DNA from: Halorhodospira halophila SL1 | GTDB taxonomy: Bacteria; Pseudomonadota; Gammaproteobacteria; Nitrococcales; Halorhodospiraceae | DNA: 32,000 nucleotides | NCBI RefSeq assembly: GCF_000015585.1 | Contig: NC_008789.1 | Span: 1,380,001 to 1,412,000 of the forward strand | Direction: 5' to 3' | Shown here: piece after piece, positions 5,947 to 30,906 of the stretch | Numbering within the stretch: position 1 is the first letter of the stretch | Layout of the letters: each line of letters opens with the position of its first letter | Translations under genes and position numbers: made by a program | The notes under the pieces: generated by a model | What the model saw: only the letters and a program-made list of their open reading frames with translations | Told to the model about the DNA's origin: nothing | The model's database searches: none

Positions 5947-6160
5947 GGTGGACTCCTTACCGTATTTATCTGGAACGATTCTAGATCTCAGCATAGCATC
6001 AGGCAGCCCACAAAACATGGGGCATCTACTCGACCGGCAGGCGGAGGGCCTGCAGCCCACCCTGGCCATCGGCCAGCCCCGCGGATAAGCTGAGATCAAC
6101 GCCGAGATCACCATCGTGGACTGTTGGCCCGCGGCCACTCAGCCCCGGAAGGAGCCCACC

Positions 6161-6703
6161 ATGCCCGGAACGGAATCGCCTGCCGCCTACCTGCTCGACG
6201 ATTTCGCCTCCGCGGACGGCCGGGCGGCGATCGGCACCGCGTGGCAAGGATTCACCGACCGGGTCATGGGCGGGCGCTCGGACATGCAGGCCGGCATCGT
6301 CGAGACCGAGTGCGGACCAGCCCTCCAGCTGAGCGGGCAGGTCCGGCTCGAGAACAACGGCGGGTTCATCCAGAGCCGACTACCGCTCGCTCCGACCGGC
6401 GAGGCCTTTAATGCCAGTGCCTGGTCTGGGTTCGGGGCTACCGTACGCGGAACCCCTGGCCCTTACTACCTGCACGTGCGCAGTACCGACACCCGGCAGC
6501 CGTGGCAGCACTACCGCGCTCCCCTGCCCGTCGCGGAAGACTGGCAAGACGTCGTGGTCCCTTTCACGGCCTTCGAACCGCGGGGACTGCGGGCGAAACT
6601 CGATACGGCCCGGCTCACATCGGTGGCGGTGGTTGCCTACGGGGCAGCGTTCGAGGCACGCGTGGAGATCGCTCGGCTGGGGCTCAGCGCGACACGCCCC
6701 TGA
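6161..6703 (+). CDS. CIA30-domain (complex I intermediate-associated protein 30-like) protein
   Basis: WQGFTDRVMGGRSDMQ plus LENNGGFIQ resemble the CIA30 family. Start MPGTES at 6161 is preceded by GGAAGGAG. Confidence 0.7.
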   Translation: MPGTESPAAYLLDDFASADGRAAIGTAWQGFTDRVMGGRSDMQAGIVETECGPALQLSGQVRLENNGGFIQSRLPLAPTGEAFNASAWSGFGATVRGTPGPYYLHVRSTDTRQPWQHYRAPLPVAEDWQDVVVPFTAFEPRGLRAKLDTARLTSVAVVAYGAAFEARVEIARLGLSATRP

Positions 6704-9265: not shown

Positions 9266-10360
9266 GCTGATCTCAAGAATCAAGCGCAACAGTCTTCGAA
9301 AAGGCCTGAAGCTCTTCAGTCATGGCCTCCTCGGGCGTTCTGAAGTCCAGTGCCTTGCGTGGCCGCTGGTTGAGAAGCCGCGCAATATCATTGAGTTGGG
9401 TCTGGCTCGGCTCGCTGAGATCGGCGCCCTTGGGCAGGTACTGGCGCAGCAGGCCGTTGGTGTTCTCGTTGCTGCCACGCTGCCAGGGCGCGTGCGGATC
9501 GGCGAACCAGATCGACAGATTCAACCGCCGGGCAAGCCGCTCATGGCAGGCCATCTCGCTGCCCCGGTCGTAGGTCAGACTCTGACGCAGGATTGCCGGC
9601 AGGCGCCTCATCTGCCGATGGAAGCCCTCCAGGGCGGCCTCGGCGGTACCGTCGTGCATCTTGCTCAGTACGACGTAGCGGGTCTTGCGCTCAACCAGCG
9701 TGCCGACCGAGGAGCGGTTGTAGGCGCCCTTGATCAGGTCGCCCTCCCAGTGGCCGGGCATCAGCCGCTGCTCGATCTCTTCAGGCCGATAGGCGATGGG
9801 CAGGTGCTCCGGGGCGATCGAGCCGCCTCGCGCGGCCGTGCGCCGCCGTTGCCCGCGCTGCGGTTTCTGGCGGCGAAGCGCCCGGATCAGCTCCTGCTTG
9901 AGCGAGCCCTTGGGATGGGCATAGATCGCCGCGTAGATGGTCTCGTGGCTGACGCGAGCCTCAGGATCCTCGGGGTTCATACGCGCCAGTCTGCCGGCGA
10001 TCTGCTCGGGAGACCACTGCCAGTAGCACAGCCGGTCCAGGACATAGCGATACAGCCATCCGCCCTCAACCAGCTTGGCGGGGCGACCGCAGCGGCGCCG
10101 TCGGGCGCGGTACTCCTGCGCGCCCTGCGTCGGGCAGTACGCCGTCTCTGCCGCGGGGTCGCTGCCGCGGGCCAACTCCCGGGTCACCGTCGACGGACTG
10201 CGCCCGAGAAGGTGGCTGATCGCCCGCGCACTGCTGCCACGGCTGCGCTCACTCAAGATGACGGCGCGCTCCTGATCACTGAGATGCTGGTATCCGTTCG
10301 CCATCGCAACATCCTACCCCGCTCTGGGCATGGGTGTTGCGCTTGAAAGTTGAGCCTACG
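9266..10360 (-). mobile_element. IS30-family insertion sequence (apparently intact copy)
   Basis: The left end is defined by the start of identity with the second copy at 18521. The imperfect terminal inverted repeats share CTCAAnnnTCAAGCGCAACA (9272-9291) and its complement (about 10336-10355). The right end is approximate. Confidence 0.75.
9273..10304 (-). CDS. IS30-family transposase
   Basis: 343-aa ORF with an N-terminal HTH (LSDQERAVILSERSRGSSARAISHLLGRSPSTVTREL). The DDE region (HWEGDLI...TYDRGSEMA...PWQRGSNENTNGLLRQYLPKG) is typical of IS30 transposases. Confidence 0.9.
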   Translation of the reverse strand: MANGYQHLSDQERAVILSERSRGSSARAISHLLGRSPSTVTRELARGSDPAAETAYCPTQGAQEYRARRRRCGRPAKLVEGGWLYRYVLDRLCYWQWSPEQIAGRLARMNPEDPEARVSHETIYAAIYAHPKGSLKQELIRALRRQKPQRGQRRRTAARGGSIAPEHLPIAYRPEEIEQRLMPGHWEGDLIKGAYNRSSVGTLVERKTRYVVLSKMHDGTAEAALEGFHRQMRRLPAILRQSLTYDRGSEMACHERLARRLNLSIWFADPHAPWQRGSNENTNGLLRQYLPKGADLSEPSQTQLNDIARLLNQRPRKALDFRTPEEAMTEELQAFSKTVALDS

Positions 10361-11688: not shown

Positions 11689-11704
11689 CTGAATAAAGTT
11701 ACAG
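11689..11704 (+). promoter_or_regulatory. Candidate LexA (SOS) box overlapping the umuDC promoter
   Basis: CTGAATAAAGTTACAG fits CTG-N10-CAG with an AT-rich spacer. It lies 28 bp upstream of the umuD ATG. A TTGACG -35-like hexamer is at 11670-11675, and TAAAGT (-10-like) lies inside the box. Confidence 0.6.
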
Positions 11705-11731: not shown

Positions 11732-12160
11732 ATGACCGTGACCCACCTGCAGACCTGCGCCAGGGAGCCTGCCGCGCTGCGCCGCCCGCTCTTTCTGGAG
11801 CGCGTTGCCGCCGGCTTCCCCTCCCCGGCTCAGGACTACGTCGACCGGGCCCTCGATCTCAACGAGCTCTGCATCGAGCACCCGGCCGCGACCTACTTCG
11901 TCCGCGCCGCCGGCGAGTCGATGCTTGGCGTCGGCATCCACCCCGGCGACGTCCTGGTGGTGGATCGCGCCCTCGAGGCTCGGCACCGGGACATCGTCAT
12001 CGCCGCCTGGCAGGGCGAGCTTACGGTCAAACGGCTGGAGCTCCGGCCGACGCTGCGCCTGGTCGCCGAGAACGACGCCTTCCCGCCGATCGATATTGCC
12101 GAGCCGGAGATGCTTGAGATCTTCGGGGTGGTTACGTTCGTCATCCACGCCCTGCGCTGA
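11732..12160 (+). CDS. umuD: UmuD, S24 peptidase subunit of translesion DNA polymerase V
   Basis: [13 protein letters not shown] (Ala-Gly cleavage region), AGESM (Ser nucleophile) and LTVKRLE (Lys). The stop overlaps the umuC start (TGATG). Confidence 0.88.
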
Positions 12161-13431
12161 TGCCGGTCTACGCGCTGGTCGACGTGAACAGCTTCTATGC
12201 GAGCGCCGAGCGGCTCTTTCGGCCGGATCTCGTGGGGCGACCGGTGGTGGTGCTGTCCAATAATGACGGCTGCATCGTCGCCCGCTCCGCGGAGGCCAAA
12301 GCGCTGGGCGTGCCCATGGGTGAGCCGTACTTCCGTGTCCGCGACTGCCTGCGGGCCGCGGGCGCGGCGGTGTTCTCGTCGAACTACGCCCTGTACGCGG
12401 ATCTGTCATCGCGGGTCATGCGCACCCTCGAGGCACTCGCCCCCGCGGTGGAGATCTACTCGATCGATGAGGCGTTCCTGGATCTCACCGGGCTCGACAC
12501 ACTGACCGACACCGAACGCTTCGGCCAGGAGGTCCGCGCCCGCATCCGGGGCGATGTCGGGTTGCCGGTATGCGTCGGCATCGGCCCGACCAAGACGTTG
12601 GCCAAGCTCGCCAACCATGCCGCGAAGCAGGATCCCGAACGCCACGGCGTCGCCTGCCTGCGCGATCCGGCAGCGCGGGCCCGGGCGCTGCGGGCCACCC
12701 CGGTGAACGCGGTCTGGGGTGTCGGCCAACGGCTCGCCGATCGCCTGGCTGAGCTCGGCGTTCACACCGCCGAGGATCTCGCCAACTTATCGCCGAGGCG
12801 GATCCGTCAGCACTTCCCCGTGACCCTCGCACGGACGGCGGAGGAGCTGCGGGGCTGCGCCTGCCACGATCTTGAAAGCGAACCGGCACCCCGGCAGCAG
12901 ATCGTCTGCTCGCGTACTTTCGGCACGCCGGTTCGTGACGAGCCGGCGCTTCGCGAGGCCGTCGCGGATTACGCGGTGCGCGCCGCGGAGCGCCTGCGCG
13001 AGACCGGACAGCACGCCGCCGCCCTCTCCGTCTTTCTTCGCACCGACCCGCACCGGACCGCGGAGCCGCAGCACATGCCCACGGCGACGCGGCGGCTGAC
13101 GATTGCAACGGACGACACTCGCGACCTGTTGGCCGTTGCCCTTCGGATCGCCGAGGAGCTCTGGCGCCCCGGCCACGCCTACATCAAGGCCGGCGTGATG
13201 CTCGGGGAACTCCAGGCTCCCGGGATCTCCGGTGATCTCTTCGCCGACGACGCGGCGCGGGCTCGATCGGCGGACCTGATGCAAGCGGTCGATGCCATCA
13301 ACCGTCGCCACGGCCGCGCTGCCGTGACCTACGGCGTCCAACGCCGGGGGCGTGCCGAATGGCGAATGCGCCGCGACTACCTCTCCCCGGCCTACACGAC
13401 GCGGTGGACGGATCTGCCGGTGGTGGGGTGA
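12160..13431 (+). CDS. umuC: UmuC, Y-family translesion DNA polymerase V catalytic subunit
   Basis: [48 protein letters not shown] and SIDEAFLDL are canonical UmuC/Y-family motifs. Translationally coupled to umuD. Confidence 0.9.
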
Positions 13432-13525: not shown

Positions 13526-14254
13526 ATGCTTGTCTACCCGCCGAATGCAGAAACGGGGGTTTATCTGCTGCTCGGGCAGTTACGCCCCTACCTGCCCTTC
13601 GAACTCGCGATCGACTCCTTTGAGATCTGCCCGCATTCAATGGGGTATGCCCATTCCAAGCATCTGGACGCGCTCGGCTATTGGCTCCGTGACGACGAAT
13701 GGGAGCGCATCAGTATCGAATTCAAGCTTCACAGCAGCGGGATGCTCCGGGACCTAACCGCACATCCAGATCTGACCGTCGATCTCCTGGTGTGCTGGCA
13801 GGATGACGTCCCGGGGGAACTGACTCAGAGCGTCGCCTACGTCCTAGCGCTCGATGAGGTTCTGGCAAATGCACCGGAGGAGGAGCGGACCGGCGTTATC
13901 CGGAATCCGAAGGCGAGCGCCCCAAGGGAGCACGCCGCAGCCACTACCGAGGCGATCATTGCCCGCTTTGCGGAGCACAACCGACCGAAGGTCGAACGGC
14001 TGTGCCAAGGCTGGCCACAGTACCGCCCGGGCGCCAGTGAGCTGATCTTTACCCGCGGAACAAGGACGCTGTTTCGGGCCGTATGCTATTCAACGGAGCA
14101 TCTGTACGTGACGGAGTACGTCGCTCGCGAACAGCGCAAGCATCTGGTGGATCGCTTCGGGGGAGACTGGTACCAGGGCGGCGCGATAAAGGTTCCCTTT
14201 GACCGACTGGACGCGCCAGGCGTCGATCACCTATTGAGTGTTCTGGGTCCGTGA
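13526..14254 (+). CDS. Hypothetical protein; N-terminal PD-(D/E)xK-like motif, function unknown
   Basis: ATG at 13526 is preceded by AAGGAGG. The N-terminal half has DALGYW...ERISIEFKL...VDLLVCWQDD, which resembles a restriction-endonuclease-fold D...ExK core. I do not recognise the C-terminal half. The track ORF start at 13352 would overlap umuC. Confidence 0.55.
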   Translation: MLVYPPNAETGVYLLLGQLRPYLPFELAIDSFEICPHSMGYAHSKHLDALGYWLRDDEWERISIEFKLHSSGMLRDLTAHPDLTVDLLVCWQDDVPGELTQSVAYVLALDEVLANAPEEERTGVIRNPKASAPREHAAATTEAIIARFAEHNRPKVERLCQGWPQYRPGASELIFTRGTRTLFRAVCYSTEHLYVTEYVAREQRKHLVDRFGGDWYQGGAIKVPFDRLDAPGVDHLLSVLGP

Positions 14255-14719: not shown

Positions 14720-15961
14720 TCACACCTTCACCTGATCGACGATCTCCGCCAGGCGGCTCGTGCCGATCCCGTCGACTTCCTCAAGCTGCTCGATCCGCCG
14801 GATCGGTCTCAGGGCGACGATCGCCTCGGCGCGCTCCGGGCCGATGTGGGGGATCGCCTGGAGTTCTTCGATGGAGGCCGTGTTGAGGTCGATGCGCCCC
14901 GTCGGCTCGTCGCCCTGCCCCGCCCCCGGTGCACCACGAGCCGACCGCGCTGAGGATGGCTTCGAGGCCTCATCCACCGGCCGGGCCGGCTCGATCTGTA
15001 GCTGGGCGTGATCAGCGAAGATCTCCAGCATCTGCTCCTGGAGCACCGTCCGTGGGCCCTGGATCAGGGCCAGGTCATCGGCCTCAAAGAGCAGTGCCGC
15101 CCGCCGGGACCCCTCCAGTTTCTCGGCCGCCACTTCGGCGAGCAGCGCGATCAGGATCCGGTGCGCATCCTCCCTCGGCTGAACGGCGGCGCGGCAATGT
15201 TCAAGTCCCTGGGCCGCCTCGGCGAAGACCTCCGGGGAGCGCGGGAGCGCGACCCATCCCGTCTTCTCGGTGACCCGTCGGTACGTCCGCTGGCCGTCCT
15301 GCAGCGCCTCACCCCGCCCCCAGACGGCCACCGCCAGGGCGAAGGAGGCGCTGAGCCGGTCCGCGTCCCAGCGGTTGATCGCCTGCTCGACAGCCTCGTC
15401 GATCCGCCGGCGCTGTCGGCGCAGCCAGGCATTGCGCCACCACCGCGGCAGGGCGTGCACGTTGTCACCGACCCACTGGCCGAGGGCGATGGCGCCGCGC
15501 AGCAGCCCGCCAATGAGCATCAAGAGCAGCTGCACCGCCCCGACGATGGCAGCGACGACCATGTAGATCAGCTGCAGCTGCGCCGCCTTCTGCCCCCGGA
15601 CCTGGACGCCGAAGGGCTTCGCCGAGGAGCGGTTGGGCTTGAGCCAGTTGAACGAGCCGAGCCGATTGCGCGTGGAGACCGTCGCGCCGCTCTTGGAGAG
15701 GTTCAGCTTGGTTGGCCCCTTCCCGTAGCGACCGCGCAGGATGAACCGTCCGTTCTGCAGGGCCACCTGGGTGTTCTTCGCCGGCGTTACCGAAGCCCGG
15801 ACGCCGCGCCGGGTGTTGGCGGTAAGATCCACGCCCGCCGCCCGGGCCTGGGCGCGCAGCGCCACGCCGCCGGTGCGACTGGCCCGCAGGTACTTGCCGC
15901 GGTGCTCGACGCGCCGCTGCTTGCCGTAAGCGTCCTTCGTGCCGAGATTAAACAGGGCCAT
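14720..15961 (-). CDS. Membrane protein with DUF4236-like basic N-terminus, one TM helix and C-terminal tandem helix-hairpin-helix (ComEA-like) DNA-binding domain
   Basis: GPTKLNLSKSGATVSTRN resembles the DUF4236 signature. The TM segment is LIYMVVAAIVGAVQLLLMLIGGLL. The C-terminus reads IDLNTASIEELQAIPHIGPERAEAIV...LEEVDGIGTSRLAEIV (two HhH). I chose start MALFNLG (15961), which is preceded by GAGGAG. Confidence 0.68.
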   Translation of the reverse strand: MALFNLGTKDAYGKQRRVEHRGKYLRASRTGGVALRAQARAAGVDLTANTRRGVRASVTPAKNTQVALQNGRFILRGRYGKGPTKLNLSKSGATVSTRNRLGSFNWLKPNRSSAKPFGVQVRGQKAAQLQLIYMVVAAIVGAVQLLLMLIGGLLRGAIALGQWVGDNVHALPRWWRNAWLRRQRRRIDEAVEQAINRWDADRLSASFALAVAVWGRGEALQDGQRTYRRVTEKTGWVALPRSPEVFAEAAQGLEHCRAAVQPREDAHRILIALLAEVAAEKLEGSRRAALLFEADDLALIQGPRTVLQEQMLEIFADHAQLQIEPARPVDEASKPSSARSARGAPGAGQGDEPTGRIDLNTASIEELQAIPHIGPERAEAIVALRPIRRIEQLEEVDGIGTSRLAEIVDQVKV

Positions 15962-16144
15962 CACGCTCCTCACCGGTGTGCCGTCATCCGCTATAGCGGC
16001 GGGCATGCCCTTCTACACCACCCCCGCGACACCATCTGTCGTCGCATTCGGAGACCATCCTTCCCGAACTGCGGGCTTCCCCGGACCTCTTTCAATCCCG
16101 CATGATGTGCCGTAGAAATACCTCGATCGCACACGGACCGAGCG

Positions 16145-17146: not shown

Positions 17147-17293
17147 AGAACCATAACCGGCCGCCAACCGCGACATGAGATGTCGCAGCCGTTTGTTGTC
17201 ATTACATCATCCCGGGCAGGATCCGATCGCGGATCCGGGCATGGAAGCCACCCGGGGCCCTTTCCAAAGAAACCGGGGGAGCGCTCTGCGATC

Positions 17294-18520
17294 ATGCCCC
17301 GCCTGTCCAAATCCCGCTTCATCGCCGGCTGGCAGTGCCCGCTTCGGCTCTGGTATGCGGTCCACGAGCCCTGGCGAGCCACGCCGCCTGATCCCCAGTT
17401 GCAGGCGATCTTCGACCAGGGCCACCGACTCGGGCAATTGGCTCAGCAGCGCTATCCATCCGGGGTGCTCGTCGAAGCGGATTACCGGCACACGCGTCAG
17501 GCCCTCGAGCAAACACAGGCGCTGATGGCCGACCCGGGGCGTACCGGCGATCTTTGAAGCCGCTCTGGAGCACGAACAGGTCCTGACCCGAGTGGACGCG
17601 CTCGTTCGAAACGGTGACGGGTGGGACCTGGTCGAGGTCAAGGGCGCCACGCGTGCCAAGGAGGTTTTCCAGCTCGACGTGGCGATCCAGTATTGGATCC
17701 TCACCGGTGCCGGCATCCCGGTACGCGATGCCGGGCTGCTGTTGATCGACCGTGACTACGTCTACCCGGGCGGCGCGCACGACCCCCAGGAGTTCTTTCG
17801 GTTCGAGCCGCTGACCAGAACCTGCGAGCAGTGGCGTGAGTGGATCGAGACGCAGGTCGTCTCCTTCCAGGAGGTTGCCGCCCGTACAACACCACCCCAG
17901 ATCGAAATCGGGCAGCAGTGCTTTAGCCCTTACCCCTGCCCGTTCTACAACCACTGCTCTGCTGACAGGGAGTGGCCCGAGCACCCGATCGAGGAGCTAC
18001 CGTATCTGGCCGGCGAGCGTTACCAGGGCCTCCTCGAGCAGGGTGTCACAACCATCGACGCCATCCCCGACGATTACCCGCTTACCGGCGCTCAGAAGCG
18101 GGTCCGAGACGCCGTTGCCAAGGGGCACCCCTGGACCGATCCCGACCTGGGTGAAGCCGTTCAGGGCGTGGATTAGCCTCTCTTCTTCCTGGATTTCGAG
18201 ACCGCGCAGCCGGCCTTACCCCGTTACCCCGGAACCTCGCCGTTCCAGGCCTTGCCGTTCCAGTTTTCCTGCCATATCCAACGAGCCCCCGGGGTCGCCC
18301 CGGAGCACACGGACTTTCTGGCTACCGCCGATACCGATCCCCGGCGCCCGCTTGCCGAGGCACTGCTCAACGCACTCGGTGACCGCGGATCGATCGTCGT
18401 TTACTCCAGCTTTGAGCGGCGGGTCCTCGGCGAACTCGCCGATGCGCTACCGGATCTCGCTGAGCCCTTAGCCGCCCTTCAGGACCGGCTGTGGGATCTG
18501 CTACGGGTCGTGCGAGACTA
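17294..18520 (+). pseudogene. DUF2779-family protein (Cas4/RecB-like Fe-S PD-(D/E)xK nuclease plus DEDD-like exonuclease domain), disrupted
   Basis: MPRLSKSRFIAGWQCPLRLWY, DLVEVKGAT, CFSPYPCPFYNHC (the Cas4-type Cys cluster together with the N-terminal Cys) and FFLDFET...PFQFSCH. There are three lesions. One is a +1 frameshift in a G run near 17535. One is an in-frame TAG at 18174-18176. The third is a 3' truncation by the IS30 end at 18521. Confidence 0.8.
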
Positions 18521-19314
18521 GCTGATCTCAAGAATCAAGCGCAACAGTCTTCGAGAAGGCCTGAAGCTCTTCAGTCATGGCCTCCTCGGGCGTTCTGAAG
18601 TCCAGTGCCTTGCGTGGCCGCTGGTTGAGAAGCCGCGCAATATCATTGAGTTGGGTCTGGCTCGGCTCGCTGAGATCGGCGCCCTTGGGCAGGTACTGGC
18701 GCAGCAGGCCGTTGGTGTTCTCGTTGCTGCCACGCTGCCAGGGCGCGTGCGCATCGGCGAACCAGATCGACAGATTCAACCGCCGGGCAAGCCGCTCATG
18801 GCAGGCCATCTCGCTGCCCCGGTCGTAGTCAGACTCTGACGCAGGATTGCCGGCAGGCGCCTCATCTGCCGATGGAAGCCCTCCAGGGCGGCCTCGGCGG
18901 TACCGTCGTGCATCTTGCTCAGTACGACGTAGCGGGTCTTGCGCTCAACCAGCGTGCCGACCGAGGAGCGGTTGTAGGCGCCCTTGATCAGGTCGCCCTC
19001 CCAGTGGCCGGGCATCAGCCGCTGCTCGATCTCTTCAGGCCGATAGGCGATGCGCAGGTGCTCCGGGGCGATCGAGCCGCCTCGCGCGGCCGTGCGCCGC
19101 CGTTGCCCGCGCTGCGGTTTCTGGCGGCGAAGCGCCCGGATCAGCTCCTGCTTGAGCGAGCCCTTGGGATGGGCATAGATCGCCGCGTAGATGGTCTCGT
19201 GGCTGACGCGAGCCTCAGGATCCTCGGGGTTCATACGCGCCAGTCTGCCGGCGATCTGCTCGGGAGACCACTGCCAGTAGCACAGCCGGTCCAGGACGTA
19301 GCGATACAGCCATC
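18521..19314 (-). mobile_element. IS30-family element, second copy, degraded (1-bp deletion and 5' truncation of the transposase)
   Basis: Near-identical to 9266-10060, with a few SNPs. One G is missing near 18826 (GTCGTAGTCAG versus GTCGTAGGTCAG), which splits the ORF into 18528-18809 and 18776-19345. It is cut at 19314 by the IS3 left end. Confidence 0.88.
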
Positions 19315-19370
19315 TGGTCTTGCCCACCAACCGTGGACACCTCAATAGCTACCATTCGACGAGGTGATCC

Positions 19371-19685
19371 ATGACGAGGCAAGCTACTCAGATGAGCAAG
19401 ACCAAGGCGAAGTCCAAGCGCACACGCTACACCCAGGCCTATCGAGACGAGGCGCTGGCGTTGGCCGAGCGCGTCGGCGTCAGCGAGGCGGCCCAGCAAC
19501 TCGGGATCCAGCCGGCGCAGATCTACCAGTGGCGCACCAAGGCCCGGACCGAAGCGGACCGCTCGCAGCGAGAGCGGGAGTTGGCCGAGGAGAATGCCCG
19601 GCTCAAGCGTCAGCTCTCGGAAGCGAATGAGGAGCTGTCGATCACAAAAAAGGCCGCGGCGTACTTCGCGAAAAACCAGAAGTGA
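19371..19685 (+). CDS. IS3-family transposase OrfA (HTH)
   Basis: 104 aa with an HTH (VSEAAQQLGIQPAQIYQWR) and a leucine-zipper-like tail. Contains the A6G frameshift site. Confidence 0.88.
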   Translation: MTRQATQMSKTKAKSKRTRYTQAYRDEALALAERVGVSEAAQQLGIQPAQIYQWRTKARTEADRSQRERELAEENARLKRQLSEANEELSITKKAAAYFAKNQK

Positions 19686-20548
19686 AGTACGCGTTCATCG
19701 ATCAGCAGCGTCACGAGCACCGGGTCCAGGCGATGTGCCGCGTCCTTGGCGTTGCTCGCAGCGGCTTCTACGCATGGTGTCGGAACAAAGCTGTCCGCGC
19801 CGCACGGGAAGAGCGCCAGCAGGCCTTTGATGGGCAGGTGCAAGAGGCCTTCGAAGACTCCAGGCAACGCTCTGGAGCGCCTCGACTGACGCGAGAGCTG
19901 GACGGGCAAGGCGTGTCGGCCAATCGCAAGACCGTGGCCCGGAGCATGCGCCGTCAGGGCCTCCGGGCACGCACGTCACGCCGGTTTAAGGTGACGACGA
20001 ACTCGGCTCACAGCCTGCCGGTCGCGCCAAACCACTTGGCCCAGCACTTTGAAGCGGAGCAGCGGAACCAGAAATGGACTGGCGACATCACGTATTTGGC
20101 GACCGGCGAAAGATGGCTCTATCTCGCGGTCGTCCTGGATCTTTGTGGCCGCAAAGTGATCGGTTGGGCCATGCGCGAGCAGATGAGCGCTGAACTGGCC
20201 TGTGAGGCGCTTCAGATGGCCCTGGAACGGCGAGGCTACCCCACGGGGGTCATCGTCCATACGGATCGAGGCAGCCAGTACTGCTCCCGTGCGTACCGCA
20301 GGCTCATCAGCGACTACGGGCTGATCAGCAGCATGAGCGCGAAGGGCAGCTGCTACGACAATGCCTGCAACGAGAGCTTTTTCCGTTCCCTGAAGGTCGA
20401 GGCCCTGCATGGCGAGAAATTCCCCACGCGGGCCTCGATGCGTGAGGCCGTCTTCGAATACATTGAGGGCTACTACAATCGCCGGCGTCTTCATAGCACG
20501 CTCGGGTACCTATCCCCGGACGACTACGAGGCCCGGCTTAATAGCTAA
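19682..20548 (+). CDS. IS3-family transposase OrfB (DDE/rve integrase core); normally expressed as an OrfAB fusion by -1 frameshifting
   Basis: WTGDITYL...HTDRGSQYCS...CYDNACNESFF...YYNRRRLHSTLGYLSP are the canonical IS3 DDE motifs. Confidence 0.9.
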   Translation: MKYAFIDQQRHEHRVQAMCRVLGVARSGFYAWCRNKAVRAAREERQQAFDGQVQEAFEDSRQRSGAPRLTRELDGQGVSANRKTVARSMRRQGLRARTSRRFKVTTNSAHSLPVAPNHLAQHFEAEQRNQKWTGDITYLATGERWLYLAVVLDLCGRKVIGWAMREQMSAELACEALQMALERRGYPTGVIVHTDRGSQYCSRAYRRLISDYGLISSMSAKGSCYDNACNESFFRSLKVEALHGEKFPTRASMREAVFEYIEGYYNRRRLHSTLGYLSPDDYEARLNS

Positions 20549-23189: not shown

Positions 23190-23504
23190 ATGACGAGGCA
23201 AGCTATTCAGATGAGCAAGACCAAGACGAAATCCAAGCGCACACGCTACAGCCCGGCCTATCGAGACGAGGCGCTGGCGTTGGCCGAGCGCGTCGGCGTC
23301 AGCGAGGCGGCCCAGCAGCTGGGGCTCCAACCGCCGCAGATCTACCAGTGGCGCACCAAGGCCCGGAACGAAGCGGACCGCTCGCAGCGAGAGCGGGAGT
23401 TGGCCGAGGAGAATGCCCGGCTCAAGCGTCAGCTCTCGGAAGCGAATGAGGAGCTGTCGATCACAAAAAAGGCCGCGGCGTACTTCGCGAAAAACCAGAA
23501 GTGA
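23190..23504 (+). CDS. IS3-family transposase OrfA (copy 2)
   Basis: 104 aa, differing in a few residues from copy 1. The A6G slippery site is at 23465-23471. Confidence 0.85.
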   Translation: MTRQAIQMSKTKTKSKRTRYSPAYRDEALALAERVGVSEAAQQLGLQPPQIYQWRTKARNEADRSQRERELAEENARLKRQLSEANEELSITKKAAAYFAKNQK

Positions 23505-24369
23505 AGTACGCGTTCATCGATCAGCAGCGTCACGAGCACCGGATCCAGGCGATGTGCCGCGTCCTTGGCGTCGCTCGCAGCGGCTTCTACGCATGGTGCC
23601 GGAACAAGGCGGCCCGCGCCGCACGGGAAGAACGCCAGCAGGCCTTTGATGGGCAGGTGCAAGAGGCCTTCGAAGACTCCAGGCAACGCTCTGGAGCGCC
23701 TCGACTGACGCGAGAGCTGGACGGGCAAGGCGTGTCGGCCAATCGCAAAACCGTGGCCCGGAGCATGCGCCGTCAGGGCCTCCGGGCACGCACGTCACGC
23801 CGGTTTAAGGTGACGACGAACTCGGCTCACAGCCTGCCGGTCGCGCCAAACCACTTGGCCCAGCACTTTGAAGCCGAGCAGCGGAACCAGAAATGGACTG
23901 GCGACATCACGTATTTGGCGACCGGCGAAGGATGGCTCTATCTCGCGGTCGTCCTGGATCTTTGTGGCCGCAAAGTGATCGGTTGGGCCATATGCGCGAG
24001 CAGATGAGCGCTGAACTGGCCTGTGAGGCGCTTCAGATGGCCCTGGAACGGCGAGGCTACCCTACGGGTGTCATCGTCCATACGGATCGTGGCAGCCAGT
24101 ACTGCTCCCGTGCGTACCGCAGGCTCATCAGCGACTACGGGCTGATCAGCAGCATGAGCGCGAAGGGCAGCTGCTACGACAATGCCTGCAACGAGAGCTT
24201 TTTCCGTTCCCTGAAGGTCGAGGCCCTGCATGGCGAGAAATTCCCCACGCGGGCCTCGATGCGTGAGGCCGTCTTCGAATACATTGAGGGCTACTACAAT
24301 CGCCGGCGTCTTCATAGCACGCTCGGGTACCTATCCCCGGACGACTACGAGGCCCGGCTTAATAGCTAA
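23501..24369 (+). pseudogene. IS3-family transposase OrfB (copy 2), frameshifted
   Basis: Split into track ORFs 23501-24007 and 23893-24369 by the 2-bp insertion near 23990. Confidence 0.85.
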
Positions 24370-28455: not shown

Positions 28456-30906
28456 ATGCTTGTCTATAGCGGCGACAAGAGCACCTTCCTCACGGATGTA
28501 GCGGATAACCGGATCTCGGATCGCATCCTCGCAGCCATGACCCGACGCAGTATGGGCGGGGTCAGTGAGAGCGAACGCCGATCCTGGGAGCAGTCCCTGC
28601 TCTACATGAAGAACGTGGTCGAGGACCCGAACATCCCGGATGACGCCGGCATCGCTGTGGAGTACCGCATCCCGCAGACATCCAAGCGGGTAGACGTCAT
28701 CATATCTGGCCTCGATGACGAACAACGCGAGTCCTGCGTCATCATTGAGCTCAAGCAGTGGCAGCACGCCGAGGCTACCGGCAAGGACGCCATCGTTCGC
28801 ACACTCCTAGGCGGTGGGATCCGGGAAACCACTCACCCCTCCTATCAGGCGTGGAGTTACAGCACGCTACTGGAGGATTTCAACGAAGCTGTGCAGAACG
28901 GCGGGATTCGGCTGACCCCGTGCGCCTATCTGCACAACTGCACCGACGGCAGCGGCCTCCAGGAACCACTCTACGACCGCTATCTGCAGTGCGCCCCGCT
29001 CTTCCTCCGGCACGACACACAAAAGCTGCGCGCGTTCATTCGGAGGTATGTCCGGTACGGTGACCATCGCCGCGTCCTTTATCGCATCGACCAAGGGCGT
29101 ATCCGCCCCTCCAAAGACTTGGCCAGTTCCCTCGCCCGTCTGATCCGCGGCAACCGAGACTTCCTGATGATCGACGACCAGAAGGTTGCCTACGAGGCTG
29201 CCCTGGAAGTCGGGACTATCGCTCAGGAATTCGGCAAGCAGGTACTGATCGTCGAAGGAGGTCCGGGCACGGGAAAGTCCGTAGTCGCCATCAACTTGCT
29301 GGTTGAACTGACCAAGCGCCACCAGACTGTCCACTACGTCACTCCGAACCGGGCGCCGCGGCAGGTCTACGAAGGACGGTTGACGGGCACTCTGACCAAA
29401 ACCCGGTTCAGCAACCTCTTCAAAGGGTCCGCCGCGTATGACAACGCGGAGCGTGACGAAATGGATGGGCTCCTCGTTGACGAAGCCCACCGCCTTCAGG
29501 AGCGCTCGCGGTGGCAGCGCGCTGGAACCAACCAGATCCGTGACATCATCCGCGCGGCCCGGACCAGCGTCTTTTTCGTCGATGAGGCGCAGCAGGTCAC
29601 CTGGAACGACACCGGCTCCATCCAGGAAATCGAGCGCTGGGCACGCGCTGAGGGGGCCACCATCCATCGCGCCGCACTGCAGTCACAGTTCCGCTGCAGC
29701 GGTTCCGACGGCTACCTGGCGTGGCTCGATCAAGCTCTCCAGATCCGCGACACGGCTCAGAAGGACCTGCACGGCATCCGTTACCACCTAGAAGCCGTTG
29801 ACTCCCCCCGAACCCTCTACCAGCGCATTGTGGAACTAGACGGCAACGGTTCCAGGGCTCGTTTGGTGGCCGGTTACTGCTGGGATTGGATCAGCAAGAA
29901 AGACCCCTGCGCGTGGGATATCACGTTCCCGGAAGAGAATCTCTTCATGCGGTGGAATCTTTACGAGGACGAGGGACGCTACCTGGAGAAGACGCACTCG
30001 ATCGATCAAGTCGGATGCATCCATACGGTACAAGGTCTGGAGATGGACTACGTGGGGGTGATCATTGGCCCCGACCTGATCGTGCGCAACGGCCACGTCG
30101 TCACCCAGCCCTCCAAACGGGCCCGCACGGACCGATCCCTTCACGGCTACAAGACTGCTCGCAAGGAGGCCCCGGAAGAGTGCGACGCCCGGGCGGACGC
30201 GATTATCAAGAACACCTATCGAACCTTGATGAGCCGCGGCCTCAAGGGGTGCCTGATCCACTGCACGGATCCGGAGACACAGGCCTACTTCCGGCAGGAG
30301 ATCGAGGCCGCTTTCTCCCAGCCTTCGGACAATACGGAGGCTTCGACGTTGCAGCCGGCGCCGGTCATTCCCCTGGATGAACAGTCATCGACCGAAGCGG
30401 AGGATGAACCGCGCACTATCCCCGCCGAAGCAGTCACGCCAGCGGATAACGCTGTGCCGTTTATCGAACTGGAGGCCGCTGCCGGAGAGTTTCAGGCGGG
30501 ATTCGCTGAGGCGGAGCGCCTTGAAGAGACGGAGACTTGGATTGCTTTGCCGGAACTCTACCGCGCCCGCCGCGGGTTGTTCGTTGCACGCGTCAAAGGA
30601 GAGTCCATGAATCGGCGCATCCCGAATGGCGCCTGGTGCCTCTTCGAGGCCAACCCCGGTGGATCGCGGCACGGCCGGGTCGTGCTCGCGTACCACCGGG
30701 ATATCCAGGACCCGGACAACAATTCTGCGCTGACTGTAAAACGGTACTACAGCGAGAAGATCACCTCGGCCGACGGCCAATGGCAGCACTCACGGATTAC
30801 CCTGGCCTGCGACACCCTGACCCCAGGCTATGAGGATATCGTGCTTGAGGAAGAGCAGGCGCGGGATCTTCGGATACTGGGAGAGTTCAAGGGCACCGTT
30901 GCCTGA
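28456..30906 (+). CDS. DUF2075-family (PD-(D/E)xK nuclease-like N-terminus plus P-loop SF1-like ATPase, Schlafen-helicase/Nhi-like) protein fused to a C-terminal LexA/UmuD-type S24 peptidase domain
   Basis: N-terminus KRVDVIISG...CVIIELKQW (D...ExK). Walker A VEGGPGTGKSVVAINL. Walker B LLVDEAHRL. C-terminal helicase-core motifs IHTVQGLEMDYVGVIIG and RTLMSRGLKGCLIH. An acidic linker follows, then VPFIELEAAAGEF (Ala676-Gly677), VKGESM (Ser717) and LTVKRYY (Lys762). It starts 8 nt after the MazG stop. Confidence 0.85.
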   Translation: MLVYSGDKSTFLTDVADNRISDRILAAMTRRSMGGVSESERRSWEQSLLYMKNVVEDPNIPDDAGIAVEYRIPQTSKRVDVIISGLDDEQRESCVIIELKQWQHAEATGKDAIVRTLLGGGIRETTHPSYQAWSYSTLLEDFNEAVQNGGIRLTPCAYLHNCTDGSGLQEPLYDRYLQCAPLFLRHDTQKLRAFIRRYVRYGDHRRVLYRIDQGRIRPSKDLASSLARLIRGNRDFLMIDDQKVAYEAALEVGTIAQEFGKQVLIVEGGPGTGKSVVAINLLVELTKRHQTVHYVTPNRAPRQVYEGRLTGTLTKTRFSNLFKGSAAYDNAERDEMDGLLVDEAHRLQERSRWQRAGTNQIRDIIRAARTSVFFVDEAQQVTWNDTGSIQEIERWARAEGATIHRAALQSQFRCSGSDGYLAWLDQALQIRDTAQKDLHGIRYHLEAVDSPRTLYQRIVELDGNGSRARLVAGYCWDWISKKDPCAWDITFPEENLFMRWNLYEDEGRYLEKTHSIDQVGCIHTVQGLEMDYVGVIIGPDLIVRNGHVVTQPSKRARTDRSLHGYKTARKEAPEECDARADAIIKNTYRTLMSRGLKGCLIHCTDPETQAYFRQEIEAAFSQPSDNTEASTLQPAPVIPLDEQSSTEAEDEPRTIPAEAVTPADNAVPFIELEAAAGEFQAGFAEAERLEETETWIALPELYRARRGLFVARVKGESMNRRIPNGAWCLFEANPGGSRHGRVVLAYHRDIQDPDNNSALTVKRYYSEKITSADGQWQHSRITLACDTLTPGYEDIVLEEEQARDLRILGEFKGTVA

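Follow-up and report, generated by a model that had tools for sequence, protein, structure and literature searches.

The window analysed here, a 32,000-nucleotide stretch of the Halorhodospira halophila SL1 genome (NC_008789.1, positions 1,380,001 to 1,412,000), contains a gene for a 413-amino-acid (aa) protein that lies back to back with a gene for a WYL-type transcription regulator, and this arrangement raises the question of when the protein is made and what it does. The type of regulator and its operator have already been published, and the family to which the cargo protein belongs is uncharacterised, all source names of its members being either 'hypothetical' or a ComEA-type label. Our best reading is that the protein is induced by DNA damage or foreign DNA and ties DNA to the membrane; taken as a whole, we give it a little less than an even chance. 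Control of the gene by its WYL neighbour is the best-supported step and, judging from the sequence, likely; a role as DNA-to-membrane tether we regard as evenly balanced; and a delay of division or segregation as the output, proposed by analogy, is a tentative suggestion. What would be new is that a WYL regulator responding to single-stranded DNA (ssDNA) controls the gene of a membrane effector whose basic domain has so far gone unrecognised and which has DNA-binding accessories.

The WYL gene and the 183-bp divergent intergenic region (15962-16144) described in the first-pass annotation of this DNA are both present, and the regulator matches the WYL (E=3.9e-13) and WCX (E=5.3e-21) models. It is 100% identical to an H. 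halophila protein, and its gene is also found, together with a partial copy of the target gene, DUF2779 fragments and an insertion sequence (IS), on a 4.3-kb contig of GCA_016583685.1. Among solved structures DriD comes closest (E=7e-9) and PafC ranks behind it; the WYL and WCX domains follow an N-terminal winged helix-turn-helix, whose recognition helix ('SLRTVQRDL') has two arginines, R41 and R45, four residues apart, which we compared with R47/R51 of DdaA. DriD of Caulobacter and DdaA of Acinetobacter are WYL activators that sense ssDNA and switch on recA, ssb, uvrA, CRISPR-Cas and restriction-modification genes, as well as the membrane division inhibitors DidA and AciT (PMC9186387, PMC12392091, PMC13010146); the DriD box is CGAC-N7-GTCG and the DdaA box CGWCA-N5-TGWCG (PMC13010146, PMC12392091). 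DdaA is activated during natural transformation, and according to Song et al. the functions of locally DdaA-regulated genes outside the Moraxellaceae remain to be elucidated.

A putative operator of the DriD/DdaA type lies between the two divergent genes, and a second one follows the WYL gene (Table 1). The motif CGAC-N7-GTCG was first noticed when the upstream regions of the window gene and of two homologues, L002 and L055, were compared (L numbers denote the loci included in the comparisons). It occurs four times in the window, two of these occurrences flanking the WYL gene, and perfect matches to CGWCA-N5-TGWCG are confined in the 32 kb to the two WYL-flanking sites, against a background of 26 per 1.17 Mb. 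The upstream scans covered 84 family genes, and in an unbiased gapped-palindrome scan of these CGAC-N7-GTCG took third place for enrichment and, with 8 loci vs 1.43 expected, led in the number of loci. Within 120 nt upstream of the homologues the box was found seven times, at 38-112 nt, where about 0.55 were expected; for loci containing a WYL gene the count was 3 vs 0.08 expected (P=7e-5), and for loci with no WYL gene in the fetched flanks it was 4 vs 0.47 expected (P=0.0014). The start of the box falls at -66 relative to the ATG in L002 and L055, at -76 in L045 and at -80 in the window, and L039 has a box with one mismatch at -73; in L002, which lies in an element resembling an integrative conjugative element, the box heads an operon in which the target homologue is followed by the WYL gene. 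Seen from the regulator, the distance from box to WYL start is 104 nt in the window and in L083 and 109 nt in L089, the window, L083 and L055 have an extra box immediately downstream of the WYL stop codon, and cognate boxes at loci of WYL orthologues were also found in L083, L089, L093, L094, L002, L009 and L015.

Linkage between the family and WYL genes was counted over 85 loci, 42 of which had good flanks. One orthologous WYL subfamily (hidden Markov model E <1e-100) occurs within 10 kb of the family gene in 13 of the 85 loci and in 10 of the 42, compared with a rough estimate of ~1-2% of loci for a regulator with one or a few copies in each genome; divergent, co-directional and convergent orientations of the two genes all occur. 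The first-pass annotation had suggested that the gene may be under WYL control, a proposal that these data support, and it had pointed to a perfect 12-bp palindrome, CCGCTATAGCGG at 15988-15999, as the site to examine for binding; in our reading the control runs through another site, the box at 16027-16041. The palindrome is indeed present, yet at chance level: 15 perfect 12-bp palindromes were counted in the window vs 13.9 +/- 3.6 expected, or about 0.07 expected per 183 bp. We rejected it as an operator on this ground and because it is not kept as a palindrome in L005, a homologue of 71% identity. The hexamer TATAGC in its middle (15990-15995, minus strand) might act as the -10 element of the target promoter; it is located 31 nt downstream of the box, a distance that would suit a -10. 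An inverted-repeat search of the intergenic region returned nothing of at least 10 bp.

Two family genes, L009 and L039, have LexA boxes instead, and LexA control as a general rule was rejected, since good boxes were found at these two loci only. As a separate observation, a different palindrome, CGACG-N10-CGTCG, lies upstream of the family gene in four loci vs 0.21 expected (L056, L066 and L072, Thioalkalivibrio; L063, a Chromatocurvus metagenome-assembled genome), and it could represent a second operator type or mere shared ancestry.

The target gene itself is real and intact, as the first-pass annotation had it, and all four protein regions described there were borne out by profiles, alignments and a structural model. 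The list of open reading frames (ORFs), which runs from the first ATG, gives 14720-16006 (428 aa); we take the product to be 413 aa because the homologues align from the second ATG, at 15961 (MALFNL...), 4 nt upstream of which lies a ribosome-binding site. From this start the alignment runs end to end with 23 and subsequently with 111 homologues, and ATG 16006 is used by none. The N-terminal domain (N-domain) is the best-conserved part of the family (79% mean column identity in 21 diverse members) and carries a net charge of +24 over 128 aa in the target (+22 as the family average); the basic repeats noted earlier are recurring turns of basic, small and Gly residues, e.g. SRTGG, RRGVRAS and SKSGATVS. 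The hydrophobic helix corresponds to 41 aa (aa 131-171) with a Kyte-Doolittle maximum of 2.1 in a 19-residue window. Across 112 sequences the segment is poorly conserved in sequence, but its hydrophobicity is always kept over a stretch of 41-48 aa, and on either side it is bordered by basic residues (charge about +5 ahead of it and +4 to +7 behind it). The middle region is all-helical (aa 170-318), has no match in Pfam, PDB or BFVD, and belongs to a helical domain that is net acidic across the family. For the double helix-hairpin-helix (HhH) the profile check gave Pfam HHH_3 with E=4.3e-13 (49.6 bits vs a cut-off of 27), the only Pfam family above threshold on the target; a PDB profile search matched the ComEA structure 2duy (E=3e-13), on which Foldseek placed the pair with a target-normalised TM-score of 0.88, a root-mean-square deviation of 1.7 A and 40% identity. 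The LPHIG and GIG hairpins of the pair are invariant.

An AlphaFold2 model of the target, built from the 112-sequence alignment, reached a mean pLDDT (predicted local distance difference test) of 88. In it aa 1-27 are disordered and are followed by a beta-meander (aa 45-105), a helix (aa 124-167), a helical bundle (aa 170-318), the linker and the HhH pair, and the hydrophobic segment lies within the one continuous helix of aa 124-167, modelled at pLDDT >92. When the full model was compared with PDB and BFVD by Foldseek, the N-domain and the helical domain gave no significant fold match, and a model of a shorter, 176-aa family form gave only noise against PDB; besides the HhH pair, the fold searches returned BamB blades, Rhs and the phi92 spike, all with E >0.1. 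The PADLOC and PHROG libraries contained no match to the target.

Table 1. Positions of the target gene, its protein regions, the putative operators and neighbouring genes in the window.
Feature	Positions	Strand	Remarks and basis
Coding sequence of the 413-aa protein, with stop	14720-15961	minus	stop codon 14720-14722; ORF list, homologue alignments
Ribosome-binding site GAGGAG	15966-15971	minus	4 nt before ATG 15961; read from the sequence
N-terminal domain, aa 1-128	15578-15961	minus	very basic beta-meander; alignment, charge profile, AlphaFold2
Hydrophobic segment (membrane anchor), aa 131-171	15449-15571	minus	hydropathy and charge profile, 112 sequences
Juxtamembrane basic helix (RWWRNAWLRRQRRR), then helical bundle, aa 172-330	14972-15448	minus	AlphaFold2, charge profile
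Disordered linker, aa 331-355	14897-14971	minus	pLDDT 44-55; length and sequence vary among homologues
ComEA-type double helix-hairpin-helix, aa 356-411	14729-14896	minus	Pfam HHH_3, 2duy, Foldseek
Putative DriD/DdaA-type operator CGACACCATCTGTCG (CGACA-N5-TGTCG)	16027-16041		66-80 nt upstream of target ATG, 104 nt upstream of WYL ATG
HTH-WYL-WCX transcription regulator, 333 aa	16145-17146	plus	Pfam, PADLOC WYL, PDB, homologues
Second putative operator CGACATGAGATGTCG	17171-17185		25 nt after WYL stop, about 109 nt before DUF2779 start codon
Decayed DUF2779 (Cas4/RecB-like nuclease) gene	17294-18521	plus	fragments 17294-17557, 17592-18176, 18252-18521
umuD	11732-12160		Pfam
umuC	12160-13431		Pfam

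The family comprises 416 homologues, many of them full length at 40-80% identity and labelled 'ComEA family DNA-binding protein' or 'hypothetical', from halophilic or alkaliphilic Gammaproteobacteria (e.g. Halorhodospira, Aquisalimonas, Guyparkeria, Thioalkalivibrio and Spiribacter) and from Desulfonatronospira, spirochaetes, Verrucomicrobiota and Latescibacterota. A profile search with the N-domain found 213 clusters among 1.84 billion representative proteins, and in nearly all matches listed the domain stands at or near the N-terminus. Acinetobacter was absent among the source-named family members, including the distant clusters that were looked up, and searches of 50,697 phage and 72,556 plasmid records returned only HhH matches in nucleases, none of them a family member. 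Three forms can be distinguished: proteins of ~400-440 aa with the HhH pair, proteins of ~300-375 aa (mostly 320-345) without it, and a form of ~176 aa in Rhodobacteraceae that consists of the N-domain and the hydrophobic segment alone; in rarer architectures the N-domain is combined with a TM2 hairpin domain, SHOCT or a zinc ribbon. The HhH pair is absent from more than half of the family. Among the forms without HhH, an overlapping, translationally coupled DUF3320 gene follows the family gene in 20 of 48 loci, vs 0 of 30 loci with HhH (Fisher P=9.5e-6). The DUF3320 protein (Pfam E=1.5e-16) has neither a signal peptide nor a membrane segment, which together with the association suggests a DNA-related cytoplasmic partner, DUF3320 being a domain that we take to be DNA-related. 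For forms without both HhH and DUF3320 no consistent downstream partner was found. The core of the family is best described as a basic beta domain plus a predicted membrane anchor, to which a fused HhH pair and a separate DUF3320 protein would be alternative accessories. The DUF3320-paired loci lie in L044-L076 (e.g. L060:10905-11645), and their DUF3320 proteins have ~240 aa.

The 176-aa form stands at the ends of prophages, beside tail, holin and endolysin genes or beside MmeI and T5orf172 genes. At L085-L088 (Yoonia, Roseovarius and other Rhodobacteraceae) the 176-aa gene occupies 6001-6531 and is preceded by an 81-aa gene, and both move together between different chromosomal sites; upstream of these prophage-borne genes no regulatory box was recognised by eye. 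The neighbours of family genes in general include type I restriction-modification genes (9 and 6 loci), DruA, MmeI, T5orf172 and, in 9 loci, SRAP. Genes for an ADP-ribosylglycohydrolase and a protein tyrosine phosphatase-like protein also recur beside the family or WYL gene (9 and 7 loci), the pair being seen in L002 (10632-12067), L003, L015, L056, L063, L066 and L072; L015 has a perfect box just after the family gene and before the glycohydrolase gene, and L002 has a one-mismatch box at the 5' end of the glycohydrolase gene. H. halophila GCA_016583685.1 carries a second family gene, L001 (contig NRRO01000009.1, 8001-9224), for a protein of 407 aa with 79% identity to the target; an SRAP gene lies ~4 kb downstream of it and a gene with a metallo-beta-lactamase fold and HHH_3 ~1.3 kb upstream.

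Two known groups invite comparison with the target. The first-pass annotation had called it DUF4236-like, and a distant relationship is indeed indicated, although the target itself stays below threshold (12.5 bits, E=0.21, gathering score 27): sub-threshold matches to DUF4236 (PF14020) occur in 15 of 21 family members (best E=4.9e-5), Foldseek matched one phage DUF4236 protein (probability 0.85), and both contain short beta-hairpin units with the pattern 'G-x-R-h-N-h-S-K-S-G-x-S-x-S'. As in the target family, occurrence in phages and linkage to membrane, SHOCT or zinc-ribbon modules are common among DUF4236 proteins. However, the match spans only ~25 of the 128 N-domain residues and scores under the gathering threshold, and the N-domain forms a small family of its own, with its 213 clusters. 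The other group is ComEA, from which the NCBI name of the target family, 'ComEA family DNA-binding protein', is taken. The target shares with ComEA a C-terminal double HhH and a membrane anchor, but it has a 128-aa basic domain before the anchor and a ~150-aa helical domain after it, its DNA-binding end is probably cytoplasmic, and the core of its family lacks the HhH pair. It also misses both ComEA models (TIGR00426, TIGR01259), with 42.6 bits vs a cut-off of 53.1 and 40 vs 152.35.

Put together as a mechanism, these features would work as follows. The WYL regulator would bind ssDNA that is produced when DNA is damaged or taken up or when phages attack, and would thereupon act at the CGAC-N7-GTCG box at 16027-16041, next to the presumed target promoter, presumably as an activator rather than a repressor, so that the target would probably be induced when DNA is damaged or foreign DNA enters; the same box probably also serves the regulator's own promoter, and the box at 17171-17185 would serve the now-dead DUF2779 nuclease gene. 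The N-domain would stay in the cytoplasm, because a charge of +24 without a signal sequence cannot cross the membrane, and the 41-aa hydrophobic segment would anchor the protein in the inner membrane. The helical domain and the HhH pair are most likely cytoplasmic as well, with the anchor forming a hairpin or re-entrant segment; this presumed topology, with both ends in the cytoplasm, is favoured because of the charge of the N-domain, the basic flanks, the cytoplasmic type of the DUF3320 partner and the relatives with TM2 hairpins. HhH pairs bind double-stranded DNA irrespective of its sequence, and nucleic acid is probably also a ligand of the basic N-domain; acting together, the two would hold DNA against the inner face of the membrane. 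The membrane-tethered DNA sensor or effector put forward in the first-pass annotation would fit this anatomy. By analogy with Noc and with the hallmark targets of DriD and DdaA, the output that we would prefer is a temporary halt to division or segregation during DNA repair or the handling of foreign DNA.

The analogies have their limits. As with the DNA-damage-induced inhibitors AciT (Acinetobacter) and DidA (Caulobacter), the gene of a membrane protein lies here behind a CGAC-N7-GTCG box and beside or under a regulator of the DriD/DdaA type, but judged by their descriptions the proteins differ: three membrane helices are reported for AciT, and DidA is very small, whereas the target has DNA-binding modules and a large basic domain. 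Noc, the nucleoid occlusion protein of Bacillus, binds DNA and membrane at once, as we propose by analogy for the target; unlike the target, it has a ParB-like fold and uses an amphipathic helix, not an integral anchor. In a wider view, which we consider doubtful, the whole family might be an unrecognised class of ssDNA-induced DNA-to-membrane tethers with division arrest or phage exclusion as the output. The active part would then be the beta-meander with its charge of +22, a domain for which the fold searches gave no relative, held at the inner membrane by a hydrophobic hairpin and capturing DNA of the chromosome or of an invader; the 176-aa proteins of prophages would be the bare version, to which the cellular proteins would add the helical domain with HhH or DUF3320, and the mechanism would be unlike that of SulA, AciT, DidA or known exclusion proteins.

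Several observations weigh against an induced DNA-to-membrane tether. Only about 8-16% of the family loci carry the box, and a WYL gene is nearby in about a quarter; the 79%-identical paralogue L001, in the same genome, has neither a WYL gene nor a box nearby; a strict sigma-70 promoter scan of the region found nothing; the conserved spacing of box and WYL start (104-109 nt) means that the window box might serve autoregulation only; AlphaFold2 draws one continuous helix in both the 413-aa and the 176-aa forms, with no hairpin, and a single span would place the HhH pair in the periplasm, as in ComEA; the N-domain, whose DNA binding we infer, has no fold match; and the contexts at prophage ends and in defence islands fit phage exclusion as well as division. 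The adjacency of the two genes could be incidental, the box merely autoregulating the WYL gene and driving DUF2779, and the target being an unrelated passenger in a variable island. The spacing that is conserved is indeed that to the WYL start, the closest WYL orthologues (83% and 77% identity) adjoin other cargo, and the 71-79% identical homologues L001 and L005 have no WYL gene nearby. We nevertheless regard such a coincidence as unlikely, because the box also stands, at a similar distance, before homologues whose fetched flanks contain no WYL gene (P=0.0014), heads the joint operon in L002, and is accompanied by a frequency of the WYL subfamily within 10 kb that, at about a quarter of the good-flank loci, exceeds the roughly 1-2% expected. 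The single helix would also suit a ComEA-like periplasmic DNA receptor, the role suggested by the NCBI name, in which one span places the helical domain and the HhH pair in the periplasm to bind incoming DNA, and the closeness of the HhH pair to ComEA and the activation of DdaA during natural transformation point the same way. This role is improbable, since the target scores under both ComEA cut-offs, over half of the family lacks the HhH pair, the hydrophobic segment is followed by a strongly basic stretch (+4 to +7), and the DUF3320 partner of the HhH-less forms looks cytoplasmic. In the window, moreover, no com genes were found among the Pfam-scanned neighbours (umuD, umuC, WYL, DUF2779 and recC), several other ORFs having no Pfam match and IS elements being present.

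More serious, though still doubtful in itself, is an anti-phage effector acting by superinfection exclusion or abortive infection, which would catch or sense invading DNA at the inner membrane and, through its hydrophobic segment, block entry or permeabilise the membrane, the WYL regulator raising its expression on ssDNA; such an output is nearly as likely as a block of division. The prophage ends at which the 176-aa form sits are typical positions of accessory 'moron' genes, the family has type I restriction-modification genes (9 and 6 loci), DruA, MmeI and T5orf172 among its neighbours, the same WYL subfamily adjoins type I-C cas genes and PD-(D/E)xK nucleases, and DdaA is reported to control CRISPR-Cas and restriction-modification genes. 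Yet no PADLOC or PHROG family matches the target, the 50,697 phage and 72,556 plasmid records hold no relatives, the poor conservation of the hydrophobic segment is that of a plain anchor rather than a pore, and the SRAP, umuDC and LexA-box contexts point to DNA damage. Finally, the first-pass annotation had suggested a possible partnership with the decayed DUF2779 nuclease, of which the target would be the survivor. The two genes stand on either side of one WYL gene in the window, and L004 has both within 8 kb; however, when co-occurrence was counted, DUF2779 was present in only 2 of the 85 family loci, the window and L004, and it has an operator of its own (17171-17185), so that a functional partnership is very improbable. 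DUF2779 looks like a separate cargo gene of the same regulator, with its own box. The literature searched contained no joint mention of WYL and DUF2779, and the mention of DUF4236 that was found is unrelated.

DriD and DdaA show that WYL regulators run ssDNA-triggered responses to DNA damage and phages, and the window provides one such cargo gene with a clear anatomy (basic domain, anchor and DNA-binding tail), from a family that spans several phyla and prophages. If the target is indeed a DNA-to-membrane tether, it would be a new type of effector in bacterial damage or defence responses, and a function could be given to a conserved domain that is now mislabelled 'ComEA family'. The Halorhodospira window is also a compact test bed, with one regulator, two putative operators and two cargo genes, one intact and one decayed.

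The regulator also occurs with other cargo. Its closest orthologues (83% and 77% identity) adjoin different genes, each with a perfect box in the promoter region: at L094:6670-12625 the WYL orthologue stands beside PDDEXK_4 and type I-C cas3/cas5d/csd1, and at L093:1524-5648 beside an unknown 582-aa protein with an AAA ATPase and DUF2201. On the evidence of such sequence neighbourhoods the WYL protein is a portable regulator of the DriD/DdaA type with variable cargo. In this it resembles the BrxR/CapW-type WYL regulators, which stand at the head of defence islands and likewise adjoin variable cargo; these are repressors and form a separate clade, whereas the operator here is of the DriD/DdaA type and the closest solved structure is DriD. 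In a search for DdaA relatives named as Acinetobacter proteins, the top 120 matches of the WYL protein all came from other taxa, a result that is uninformative.

Elsewhere in the window, the start codon of umuD is preceded at 28-43 nt by a LexA-like box (CTGAATAAAGTTACAG, 11689-11704) that departs from CTGT-N8-ACAG at one position, so the island carries SOS-type and WYL-type damage circuits side by side. At 28456-30906 on the plus strand, an 816-aa protein combines a Schlafen group 3 helicase domain (E=3e-103) with a C-terminal S24 peptidase of the LexA/UmuD type (E=3e-6), and it is possibly a helicase activated by self-cleavage after DNA damage. Convergent with the target, a 242-aa ORF (13526-14254, plus strand) has no match in Pfam, NCBIfam, PADLOC or PHROG; by eye, 'ISIEFKL' after conserved aspartates hints at a PD-(D/E)xK nuclease fold. 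The DUF2779 gene is frameshifted and cut off by an IS element from 18528, and IS elements cluster after this remnant, at 18528-20548 and at about 23500-24369. The 16-mer CTGTGAGGCGCTTCAG is found unchanged at 20200 and 24021, which suggests that one IS3-type element is present twice; GTCAGACTCTGAC, with copies at 9574 and 18828, may be a repeat belonging to a different element.

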